Below, piece by piece: positions 5,514 through 6,597 of a stretch of 64,000 bases of DNA. This DNA is from Candidatus Giovannonibacteria bacterium (lineage in GTDB: Bacteria; Patescibacteriota; Minisyncoccia; UBA11713; 2-01-FULL-45-33). The notes beneath the pieces were generated by a model, which did not search any database, was not told where the DNA came from, and was given only the letters and a program-made list of their open reading frames with translations. The stretch covers positions 42,456 to 106,455 of the forward strand of contig CP066687.1 of NCBI GenBank assembly GCA_016432405.1. The letters are read 5' to 3'. Position numbers and translations under genes: made by a program. Positions within the stretch are counted from its first letter, which is position 1. Each line of letters begins with the position of its first letter.

Positions 5514-5639
5514 TTGCGAAACGGCAAACGCGAACCCATTGTCACGATTCCACCTATTGTCAGGCCTGTCGTTGTACGCGTTCAACCAGCGACCATCATC
5601 ATTGCGGTTCGCGTTCAGCAAGTTCGGATTGCCATCGGA
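5514..5639 (-). repeat. DGR template repeat (TR)
   Basis: The 126 bp match 5980-6105 except at 16 positions. Every mismatch is a T on the + strand, i.e. an A in the minus-strand sense. The translation is AAC/Asn-rich: NANRNDDGRWLNAYNDRPDNRWNRDNGFAFAVSQ. Confidence 0.85.
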
Positions 5640-5927
5640 ATCGCACGAAATATCGTCCATGTCACCACCCCTCGAATACTCTCGGGGTTGAATCGAATCC
5701 GGCATAGCAATGCCTTAATATCTCGCGCCAAGTATCTTCTTTTTTTGAAGTTTCTGCATGCACCACTCTATCTGCAACCGTGATCGCAGATACTCTCGAT
5801 GCATGGATACTGGGTTCGGTAGCGGGAAATATAAAATTTATCTCCCGCATATTCACCTACTACCACTCTGGATTTTAACATAAGAAAAACCCCCGCATCC
5901 ACTATTTCTAGTAGACACAGGGGCAGG

Positions 5928-5965
5928 ACTAAGACCAAAGGACCTAAAAGATCACAGTGTCTTAG
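5928..5965 (-). promoter_or_regulatory. Hairpin immediately 3' of the VR
   Basis: An 8-bp inverted repeat, ACTAAGAC ... GTCTTAGT, with a 22-nt loop. The right arm covers the stop codon. It sits where DGR target-recognition hairpins are found. Confidence 0.4.
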
Positions 5966-6597
5966 TTTTGAGGGCTAACTTGCGAAACGGCAAACGCGAA
6001 CCCACTGTCACGAGGCCACCTAACGCCAGGCCTGTCGTAGTACGCGAGCAACCAGCGACCATCAGCATCGCGGTCCGCGTACAGCAAGTCCGGAAGGCCA
6101 TCGGAGTCATTGATGGGTTCGTGCATTGCGACGATCCACCAAAGGCCCATGGCTTTGATCTCCTCGTCCGTGAACTTCTCACGGATGAGGCAAGCCACTT
6201 CGGCGTTCGGCTTTTCAAGCTTGCGCTTGTCGGCCTCGGCGCGGATCTTCTTCGTGATCCGGTCGTTGTCCTCGAAGAGCATGCCATTGAGAACGGCGAC
6301 TTCAGTCGTTACGCCTTTGGTCGGCACGAAGCTCGGCGAACGGAGCACCTGCTTGGCGTAGTCACCCACGCGGAAGCCTTTGCTCTCAAGCCTGGTGACC
6401 CAATCCTCGCCAGTCGTGCCATCGCTGATGACCGAGAAGTAGATGACGCCGTCTTCCTTGCGCCACGAACGGGTCGGTTCGGAAACCGAGAGTTCGTCGC
6501 GGAGAAAACGGAGCGCCATGTCGTGGCCACCGAGTTTCTTGACGATGGCGTTGAGTTGGCCGGCGGTGAGGTCGGCGGATGCAAATTCTGTACTCAT
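5962..6597 (-). CDS. DGR variable (target) protein
   Basis: A 211-aa ORF starting MSTEFASADL, preceded by the RBS AAGGAGG. The C-terminal 42 codons form the VR: DRDADGRWLLAYYDRPGVRWPRDSGFAFAVSQVS. The gene is GC-rich (about 60-65%) against an AT-rich neighbourhood. Confidence 0.8.
   Translation of the reverse strand: MSTEFASADLTAGQLNAIVKKLGGHDMALRFLRDELSVSEPTRSWRKEDGVIYFSVISDGTTGEDWVTRLESKGFRVGDYAKQVLRSPSFVPTKGVTTEVAVLNGMLFEDNDRITKKIRAEADKRKLEKPNAEVACLIREKFTDEEIKAMGLWWIVAMHEPINDSDGLPDLLYADRDADGRWLLAYYDRPGVRWPRDSGFAFAVSQVSPQN
5980..6105 (-). repeat. DGR variable repeat (VR)
   Basis: Aligns to the TR with A-specific substitutions only. The 25 bp at the 3' end, TTGCGAAACGGCAAACGCGAACCCA on the + strand, are identical between TR and VR. 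This is an IMH-like segment. Confidence 0.85.

Follow-up and report, generated by a model that had tools for sequence, protein, structure and literature searches.

A complete diversity-generating retroelement on a Candidatus Giovannonibacteria chromosome, with a structured leader 5' of the template region and a simple-sequence repeat in avd

The locus described here lies in a window of 64,000 nucleotides from the chromosome of a member of Candidatus Giovannonibacteria (CPR/Patescibacteria), an ultra-small groundwater bacterium, and is almost certainly a complete and recently active diversity-generating retroelement (DGR). Read along the minus strand, it consists of a gene for a 211-aa target protein with a C-terminal variable region (VR), a template region (TR), an avd gene on the reverse strand and a reverse transcriptase (RT) gene. 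The order target, TR, (avd), RT was found again in at least 18 genomes, and no synteny was found between the lineages that carry related loci. Besides this gene set and layout, the sequences directly display an adenine-specific TR/VR pattern, a constant TR next to a VR that varies between samples, and a covarying leader. The interpretation of the TR/VR pair as a trace of mutagenic retrohoming, put forward in a first-pass annotation, is supported, as every test that was run agrees with it. The element adds one member to a known class and does not differ in kind from other CPR DGRs; features that may be new in the clade are the structured 5' leader, the repeat in avd and the discordant history of the target-leader-TR module.

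Results

The TR (5514..5639) and the VR (5980..6105), both on the minus strand, can be compared without gaps over 126 nucleotides and show 110 identities and 16 mismatches, the numbers that the first-pass annotation had obtained by hand; the translations of both copies also agree with those given there. All 16 mismatches are located at a T of the plus strand of the 5514 copy, which is an A of the coding minus strand, and the plus-strand substitutions from TR to VR are T to C (6), T to G (5) and T to A (5). When mismatches were tabulated by TR base, none was found at C, G or A. The TR contains 31 adenines among its 126 bases, and the probability that 16 randomly placed mismatches all hit A is 4.2e-12. 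AAY codons make up 10 of the 42 TR codons, and 30 of the 31 adenines occupy codon positions 1 or 2. The mismatches are distributed over codon positions 1, 2 and 3 as 9, 7 and 0, and the 12 changed codons are all non-synonymous. The earlier description of these changes as replacements of Asn codons needs one correction, as the Ala and Gly residues of the VR derive from Asp codons (GAT to GCT and GAC to GGC). Across 25 related loci with TR/VR pairs, 440 of 502 mismatches are at TR adenines.

The base change that had been taken to mark the 5' edge (A at 5640, G at 6106) is indeed a non-adenine change on the minus strand, and it is followed by two matching bases before homology is lost. The edge should be regarded as soft and not as abrupt, because TR/VR homology in relatives extends about 8 nt further with a few non-A mismatches. 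In DGRs, mutagenesis is bounded at the other end by an invariant, adenine-poor segment, the IMH of the VR, which has IMH* as its counterpart in the TR. Here, the final 24 nt (GGGTTCGCGTTTGCCGTTTCGCAA) are the same in TR and VR and constant in all alleles, so a difference between IMH and IMH* by which donor and recipient could be told apart is absent; cases of identical IMH and IMH* were reported by Wu et al. 2018 (PMC5758913). No second VR-like copy was found in the 64-kb window.

The RT gene (4110..5111, minus strand) encodes a protein of 333 aa that matches Pfam RVT_1 with 88 bits. Of the proteins with a solved structure, the closest to it is 8ub7_A (a chain of 328 aa deposited as 'Reverse transcriptase'; E=4e-43, 151 bits), which we take to be the bRT of Bordetella phage BPP-1, while group II intron RTs score 67 bits. 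RTs of the DGR clade have the motif (I/L/V)GxxxSQ where those of group II introns and retrons have QGxxxSP. The window protein carries LGNLTSQ where 8ub7_A has IGSLTSQ, and YADD where 8ub7_A has YMDD; judged by the motif and the closest solved relative, it appears to be an RT of the DGR type. The avd gene (5091..5507) is located on the plus strand, opposite to TR and RT; the avd and RT genes overlap head-to-head, sharing 21 nt at their starts. This reverse orientation is found in every related locus. The gene product scores 41.3 bits against Pfam bAvd PF22296 (cut-off 40) and 61 bits against NCBIfam DivGenRetAVD, which is under the curated cut-off of 80; a sequence search of Avd against solved structures gave no match. 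As the locus has an RT, an Avd homolog, a TR that stays constant and an ORF whose 3' end contains the VR, the DGR mutational signature recognized in the first-pass annotation is borne out.

The target gene (5962..6597, minus strand) encodes 211 aa, of which residues 164-205 are encoded by the VR. An AAGGAGG ribosome-binding site can be read from the sequence 6 nt before the ATG at 6597, and a consensus scan predicted a promoter-like site upstream of the gene (6714..6742, minus strand; TTGACA-17-TATAAT, 12/12), a stretch that is not kept in relatives. The target transcript probably ends at an intrinsic-terminator-like hairpin and T-run (5880..5924, minus strand) with a 16-pair stem followed by TTTTTCTT; in relatives the stem sequence has changed and the pairing is retained. 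Directly after the stop codon there is a small nested hairpin (5930..5964, minus strand), possibly the counterpart of the inverted repeat that flanks the VR in other elements. The window version folds poorly (-1.9 kcal/mol, z +0.9); relatives show the hairpin more clearly, with a stem that still pairs through different sequences (GGGAC/GTCCC, GCGC/GCGC, GATC/GATC). According to Wu et al. 2018 (PMC5758913), only about one DGR in three has a GC-rich inverted repeat behind the VR. Searches of the target against Pfam and NCBIfam revealed no family, and a profile search against the PDB returned one marginal match of 30 residues. The variable proteins of DGRs display the VR on a C-type-lectin or Ig fold. 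Among 120 target homologs, column entropy is highest at the residues that are templated by TR adenines. An antisense ORF at 5968-6759 was considered as a real gene and set aside; it is probably a by-product of the near-absence of A at third codon positions.

The window was compared with L001 (SRR12113426), an independent assembly of the same strain, so that the differences are between assemblies and not between reads. Over 4001 nt there are 19 differences, all of them in the VR at TR-adenine positions, and none elsewhere. Two further assemblies show 2 VR differences at TR-adenine positions, and their contigs stop at window positions 6126-6139, about 20-35 nt past the VR edge at 6105. The VR is the sole part of the 4-kb stretch that differs among the same-strain assemblies, and the TR is unchanged in all five that were compared. 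Since L001 differs by 19 bases and solely at VR positions that correspond to TR adenines, the element has very probably been active recently. From the differences between assemblies and the contig breaks only, we infer that the VR is heterogeneous within samples.

The avd gene contains a simple-sequence repeat, a C10 tract in codons 14-16 (5130..5139, plus strand) that reads as G10 on the other strand, lies 18 nt upstream of the RT ATG and leaves avd in frame. No other G/C run in the 64-kb window reaches a length of 8. Among 91 related loci, 71 have a poly-G of 7-14 nt at this site of avd, and in several others the site is occupied by 7-12 units of a di- or tetranucleotide repeat; a repeat with a 3-nt unit was found in none of the 91. 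The avd reading frame in these related loci is set by the length of the repeat. From these sequences, the C10 tract is a candidate phase-variation switch on avd, which would be in the ON state in the window.

Alternative explanations were considered for both the TR/VR pair and its activity. The two copies could be an ordinary duplicated gene fragment, a paralog or pseudogene remnant that diverged by normal mutation, drift or selection; repeats of this length can arise that way, and in the frame of the VR the TR forms part of an open reading frame of 77 aa (5472-5705). This ORF has no match to protein families, however, and a DGR-type RT and an Avd adjoin the pair. The 16 differences are confined to a single base of a single copy (P=4e-12) and include no synonymous change, and the same 31 positions, and no others, differ between assemblies of one strain. 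The base specificity and the zero synonymous changes exclude paralogy with drift, the condition under which the first-pass annotation would have had to be abandoned, and we consider a duplication of any ordinary kind exceedingly improbable. It is also very unlikely, though less remote, that the element is a fossil whose VR diversified long ago, the assembly differences being old standing variation between strains. Such a history would fit with the avd gene being out of frame in about two thirds of the related loci, with three identical relatives (L044, L096 and L101) that show no VR difference, and with evidence of activity that is at the assembly level only. Against it, every component is intact in the window strain (RT, TR, leader, target and an avd that C10 keeps in frame), and the window and L001 agree at every position of the roughly 3.9 kb around the VR and differ at 19 within it, so the VR has changed faster than one ordinary substitution could appear around it.

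For the tract at 5130-5139, the view that it is not a switch at the DNA level, and reflects sequencing or assembly errors at homopolymers, RNA-polymerase slippage or an element of the RT 5'-UTR, so that Avd would not be gated by DNA length, is possible and deserves rather less than even credence. In-frame alleles number 25 of 75 (19 of 64 for poly-C only), close to the one third expected for a random frame. No variation in tract length was found in the window strain, where the 5 contigs examined, of 12 found, all carry G10. Moreover, G/C homopolymers are error-prone on Illumina instruments, and the tract lies 3-39 nt upstream of the RT start. On the other hand, other lineages have (GT)8, (GT)12, (GA)12, (TTGG)10-11 or (ATTG)7 at this site, sequences that share nothing with each other except hypermutability, and 3-nt units are absent. 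A locus with (AACC)2 is in frame (L020) and one with (AACC)3 is out of frame (L052), with near-identical flanks. Similarly, L044 (G9, in frame), L096 (G10, out of frame) and L101 (G8, out of frame) differ solely in tract length. Their alignment over 4566 nt, which spans both of the A8 runs that are listed for L096, has 0 mismatches and a single gap, the G tract. Most loci have no start codon after the tract, and the Avd profile starts right behind it.

A further feature that may be new in the clade is a structured non-coding leader of about 225 nt (5640..5864, minus strand) directly 5' of the TR. An extended -10 box, TGTTAAAAT (5872..5880, minus strand), was read from the sequence and is predicted to belong to a separate TR-RNA transcription unit. 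In most of 21 related loci TATAAT occupies the corresponding position, immediately before the start of the leader; TAGAAT, TATACT and TATATG occur as variants. The leader DNA is 86-96% identical across CPR lineages, as compared to about 60% for avd and RT, and an nhmmer profile detected it at a fixed distance upstream of the RT gene in 69 of 73 related cases. Compensatory changes were found in 39 of 66 pairs (RNAalifold); 96.6% of alignment cells can pair, versus 35-50% in slid controls, and 0 of 500 shuffles matched the observed value. Folding of the full 391-nt RNA gave a z of -3.4, and the segment 5440-5720 folded alone was no better than shuffles (z -0.8). At the gathering thresholds, Rfam reported tRNAs only, and relaxed thresholds added only a sub-threshold RT-7 hairpin and a chance miRNA match. 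The hairpin of the leader at 5746-5799, with flanks AGAGU...AGAGUG, matches the first hairpin of RT-7 (RF03028). Membership of the leader in this family was rejected at 23.1 bits versus a gathering threshold of 116.8, with 145 of 191 model positions skipped. RT-7 is among the RT-associated RNA motifs of Weinberg et al. 2017 (PMC5737381), who speculated that the RT motifs serve DGRs.

On the other side of the TR, a hairpin with a U-run follows immediately (5474..5501, minus strand; an 8-pair stem, then TTTTGTTTT). The stem shows compensatory changes in relatives, and we propose that it may act as a terminator of the TR RNA and/or, by analogy to other DGRs, as an Avd-binding stem-loop. The 3' tail segment TCTTCATTT (5502..5510, minus strand) is a candidate for pairing with AAAAGAAGA in the leader (5735-5743), a duplex that would bracket the TR. 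Across 68 distinct sequences, pairing is possible in 91% of the cells of this duplex (slid controls: 48-57%), and both sides have changed in 5 of its 9 pairs; the clade of the window has an A.A mismatch at one position. Further downstream of the TR hairpin, inside the antisense avd, no consensus structure like the Bordetella Sp was found, and conservation there is three-periodic by eye, as expected for avd coding.

The target-leader-TR module may have a history that differs from that of RT and avd. Among the related loci the histories of target module, avd and RT are discordant, and synonymous sites of the module are near-identical across hosts whose RTs are saturated, for which reason the comparison suggests that parts of DGRs are exchanged as modules. 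As a cause of the conservation of synonymous sites in the target, selection on these sites was judged less likely than recent spread, because a difference of 10-12% in amino acids versus 16-17% at four-fold sites is an ordinary ratio. According to Wu et al. 2018 (PMC5758913), DGR cassettes largely coevolve, unlike the discordant module described here.

Discussion

The locus has the B3 architecture of CPR DGRs, for which Wu et al. 2018 (PMC5758913) gave the order TR-(avd)-RT and a reverse-strand avd; Roux et al. 2021 (PMC8144416) list this group as clade 2 of the DGRs. It shares with this group the hosts, the order of components, the reverse avd between TR and RT, the chromosomal location and a small target without recognizable domain or transmembrane segment. 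The 5' structured leader, the hairpin and U-run after the TR, and the repeat in avd were all absent from the DGR literature searched.

Similar to the DGR of BPP-1 (mtd-avd-TR-brt), the element shows adenine-specific transfer from TR to VR, an Avd partner, a VR at the C-terminus of a protein with a lectin-like fold (putative in the present case), and a repeat whose 3' end is invariant and poor in adenine. Handa et al. (bioRxiv 10.1101/2023.10.23.563531) described for BPP-1 a stem-loop just downstream of the TR and a duplex that joins sequences upstream and downstream of it, to which the predicted stem-loop and the candidate duplex across the TR would correspond. Unlike the phage element, in which all genes are on one strand, the present one has a cellular host and an inverted avd that overlaps the RT start. 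Whereas BPP-1 requires a structured Sp of 140 nt located 3' of the TR, the large structured RNA is here 5' of the TR, and only about 40 nt separate the TR from the U-run. The target differs as well, not being a tail fibre.

The repeat in avd is reminiscent of the contingency loci of Neisseria, Haemophilus and Campylobacter. As in those loci, the early part of the coding region contains a homopolymer or a di- or tetranucleotide repeat, genomes that are otherwise identical differ in its length and thereby in the reading frame, and the site is kept while the repeat sequence changes. Known contingency loci switch surface or restriction-modification genes. Here the gene that would be switched encodes the accessory subunit of a mutagenic retroelement, and the length differences come from relatives of the window strain.

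In the mechanism that we propose, the -10 box would drive a separate non-coding RNA of about 390 nt with four parts: the structured leader (about 225 nt), the TR (126 nt), a short tail segment, and the hairpin with its U-run. RT and Avd would copy the TR into cDNA with misincorporation opposite template adenines, and the cDNA would replace the VR at the 3' end of the target gene. In a putative C-type-lectin-like domain, this would randomize some 20 codons for surface residues, most of them AAY, with adenine-free codons holding the scaffold. Reverse transcription, adenine misincorporation, cDNA homing and the priming role of the RNA elements are steps that we infer from the Bordetella phage paradigm. 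The presumably hypermutable repeat lies within the first 20 codons of avd, at the head-to-head overlap with the RT start; slippage would shift avd in and out of frame, so that only a changing minority of cells could mutagenize the target. That the DGRs of this large clade combine such contingency-gated diversification with a stand-alone TR RNA structured 5' of the TR and with a target-leader-TR module that has spread among cassettes of unrelated RT/avd lineages is a proposal to which we give about even odds.

The TR/VR pair by itself is routine, as chromosomal DGRs are already abundant in this host group, and the locus is best seen as a well-behaved example that is complete and whose recent activity can be read from public assemblies. 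To our knowledge, the regulation of DGR mutagenesis is largely unknown, and a conserved slippery repeat that sets the frame of avd would, if true, be a simple stochastic switch of this process. Likewise, we know of only one phage element for which the RNA requirements of DGR reverse transcription have been worked out, and the covarying leader of about 225 nt is located here on the other side of the template from the RNA of that element.

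Architecture of the DGR cassette

The target gene of the diversity-generating retroelement (DGR) is a minus-strand ORF of 211 amino acids (6597-5962), of which residues 164-205 form the variable region (VR). It is preceded on the same strand by a perfect 12/12 match to the sigma-70 consensus (TTGACA-17-TATAAT, 6742-6714), a promoter-like stretch that is not conserved in related loci, and then by a putative ribosome-binding site (AAGGAGG). Behind the target, also on the minus strand, follow a terminator-like hairpin (5924-5889), an extended -10 box (5880-5872), a non-coding leader of ~225 nt (5864-5640), the template region (TR, 5639-5514) directly 3' of it and, after a short tail, a hairpin followed by TTTTGTTTT (5501-5474). 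The accessory gene avd lies on the opposite strand (5091-5507, +) and fills the ~360 nt between this hairpin and the reverse transcriptase (RT) gene (5111-4110, minus strand), whose product matches RVT_1. The avd ORF scores 41.3 bits against Pfam bAvd, above the cut-off of 40, and 61 bits against the NCBIfam Avd model, below the cut-off of 80.

The best solved relative of the RT is chain 8ub7_A (E=4e-43), deposited only as 'Reverse transcriptase', which we take to be the Bordetella phage enzyme. Its motifs IGSLTSQ and YMDD align to LGNLTSQ and YADD of the window RT, and group II intron RTs score far below it. The TR-(avd)-RT order corresponds to architecture B3, found in 90% of the CPR set of Wu et al. 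2018 (PMC5758913). At its 3' end the RT ORF shares 62 nt (4110-4171) with the beginning of a SpoU-family methyltransferase ORF (3656-4171) on the same strand. Further along, an ORF of 307 amino acids without family match (2743-3666) includes a Pro/Ala/Thr-rich low-complexity segment in a GC-rich stretch (2850-3150, 0.64).

Adenine-specific variation and recent activity

Ungapped comparison of the plus strand of the TR (5514-5639) with that of the VR (5980-6105), tabulated by base, reproduced the 110 identities and 16 mismatches over 126 positions of the first-pass annotation. All 16 mismatches are at a T of the TR copy, an adenine on the minus strand, with changes to C (6), G (5) and A (5). 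Since the TR holds 31 adenines in 126 bases, the chance of such an outcome is 4.2e-12. Of the mismatches, nine occupy the first codon position and seven the second; the third is untouched, and the amino acid is altered in all 12 changed codons. The TR has ten AAY codons. The earlier translations of TR and VR are accurate, except that Ala and Gly derive from Asp rather than Asn codons; a non-adenine change indeed borders the repeat, but homology runs three bases beyond the abrupt end proposed there. A further VR-like copy was not found within the 64-kb window.

A Candidatus Giovannonibacteria MAG encodes a hypothetical protein identical to the target, and an RT identical to that of the window occurs on 12 contigs from independent assemblies of one series of sequencing runs, five of which were compared with the window. 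The same-strain assembly L001 (SRR12113426) differs from the window at 19 positions over 4001 nt, all in the VR and all templated by TR adenines; by simple arithmetic, the probability that 19 differences all fall within 31 of 4001 positions is ~1e-40. Two further assemblies, L002 and L003, show two VR differences, again at adenine-templated positions. None of the same-strain assemblies compared differs from the window in TR, leader, avd or RT. The VR was therefore rewritten faster than any ordinary substitution arose. As far as assembled sequences can tell, the DGR is demonstrably active in this strain, its VR having changed with no ordinary substitution meanwhile. The adenine-only mismatches, the DGR gene set and the VR-only variation between assemblies bear out the originally recognized signature of mutagenic retrohoming. 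The L002 and L003 contigs stop at window positions 6126-6139, ~20-35 nt past the VR edge (6105), a break to be expected if the assembly graph is split by a heterogeneous VR.

Target protein and its family

The family of the target is large and uncharacterised (1754 matches at E<=0.001; 1918 clusters at 50% identity), and no Pfam family was found for it. Save at the adenine-templated residues, 120 close homologues show almost no column entropy, and the fold is probably a divergent lectin-type scaffold. By eye, neither a signal peptide nor a membrane segment is obvious in the sequence, in agreement with the description of CPR clade-2 targets by Roux et al. 2021 (PMC8144416). An antisense ORF of 263 codons spans the whole gene (5968-6759, +). 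Since A is almost missing from the third codon positions of the target, few antisense stop codons are left, and the ORF is probably no more than a side effect of this.

Structured RNA around the TR

Between the window and nine other lineages, DNA identity is 0.86-0.96 in the stretch 5850-5640 and ~0.9 in the TR, as compared to ~0.6 in avd and RT. The fold obtained from 21 aligned leaders has ten helices, and 39 of its 66 pairs have compensatory changes. Pairing is kept in 96.6% of cells, compared to 35-50% in controls with slid partners, and the observed values were reached by none of 500 shuffles. By nhmmer profile, 69 of 73 related RT genes have the leader upstream of them, at a constant distance. 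One leader hairpin is similar to the first of Rfam RT-7, with a score far under the family threshold.

Most of the 21 loci listed have a TATAAT box shortly before the point where the conserved leader starts. In relatives the hairpin behind the TR still pairs although its sequence has changed, and the U-run after it is almost invariant; further downstream no consensus structure was found in the relatives compared, and conservation appears three-periodic by eye, as expected for avd coding. The leader with its own -10 box (5872-5880) and the hairpin with U-run (5474-5501) would together imply a stand-alone TR RNA of ~390 nt. Its structured part is mostly 5' of the template, unlike that of the Bordetella phage, where it is 3'. 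A candidate 9-bp duplex brackets the TR (leader 5743-5735 with tail 5510-5502, minus strand), in which 91% of cells pair compared to 48-57% when slid and both sides have changed in five pairs; in the window clade it has an A.A mismatch at its middle. [quoted passage not shown] (bioRxiv 10.1101/2023.10.23.563531).

A simple-sequence repeat in avd

Codons 14-16 of avd contain a C10 run (5130-5139, +), read as G10 on the RT strand, 18 nt upstream of the RT start and the sole G/C run of at least 8 in the window. A simple-sequence repeat is kept at this site across ~80 related DGRs (loci L006-L158), and the avd frame depends on its length. Poly-G of 7-14 nt (mode 10) is present in 71 of 91 related loci and others carry (GT)8, (GT)12, (GA)12, (TTGG)10-11 or (ATTG)7; none of the 91 has a repeat with a 3-nt unit. 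Translation of avd would start ahead of the repeat, at a codon that faces the conserved RT codon for His7, and the Avd profile begins immediately 3' of the repeat. Most related loci have no alternative avd start, and the start is in frame with the Avd core in 25 of 75 loci and out of frame in 50.

These features, together with the length differences described below, give the repeat, as read from the alignments, the signature of a contingency locus. Alternatively, the pattern could stem from errors in homopolymers, from slippage during transcription or from an influence on expression of the RT, and an in-frame avd in one third of the loci is what unselected frames would give. Over 4566 nt, VR included, loci L044, L096 and L101 differ only in their tracts, of G9 (in frame), G10 and G8; the G tract is the only gap in this alignment, within which both A8 runs listed for L096 also fall. 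L020 and L052 have opposite avd frame states with (AACC)2 and (AACC)3, and the run is C10 and in frame in all five contigs examined of the window's own strain. Our full-text search, made on an incomplete coverage of the literature, found no paper linking DGRs with the repeat-mediated switching that a contingency locus would suggest.

Related loci and discordant histories

Of the 73 loci from a genome scan, all but a few are labelled Patescibacteria-group MAGs; the few others carry Gammaproteobacteria or Bathyarchaeia labels. At least 18 related loci share the cassette of the window, including the reverse-strand avd, and in 25 with recognisable TR/VR pairs 440 of 502 mismatches are at TR adenines. 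No synteny of flanking genes was found between lineages. In about half of the loci with full flanks the target homologue has no RT, avd or TR within 5 kb. Close homologues in this situation, with no leader in that range either, lie in L021, L023-L025, L030, L033, L036, L042, L043, L047, L049, L050, L057, L060, L062 and L065. Such solitary homologues could be trans-targeted, frozen, or DGR-independent paralogues. In L044, from a Taylorbacteria MAG, the complete cassette is preceded, ~2 kb upstream, by a second avd and an RT fragment (3702-4586; 74% identity across residues 62-164). They look like a tandem DGR remnant, which could serve as a recombination partner for that cassette.

Comparison of window segments 5962-6650 and 4110-5507 with loci L006-L069 showed that target, avd and RT differ in history. 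In most closer lineages, including the window, the target has a GC content of ~0.60 and a GC3 of ~0.80, largely independent of host GC, against 0.28 to 0.56 in the flanks, and adenine makes up only 3-4% of its four-fold sites, for which composition is the one explanation at hand; a handful of more divergent homologues have a GC3 of 0.44-0.60. RT composition is generally much nearer to that of the flanking DNA. At four-fold sites the window target is 0.82-0.84 identical to the closest targets of other lineages and 0.67-0.79 to several others, as compared to ~0.35 expected from composition, whereas the adjacent RTs are saturated (0.21-0.40). Pair by pair, divergence of the target is hardly or not at all correlated with that of the RT (r=0.14 at four-fold sites, r=0.25 for amino-acid identity). 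Avd and RT also disagree in some pairs, such as L007 and L012 with 96% identity in avd and 60% in RT. The simplest reading of these sequence comparisons would be a recent spread of the target-leader-TR module together with recombination among cassettes.

The window element adds one more member to the known CPR DGR group; in kind it is nothing new. What makes it valuable is its demonstrable activity, along with features of the clade that are as yet provisional: the RNA leader, the avd repeat and the discordant histories.
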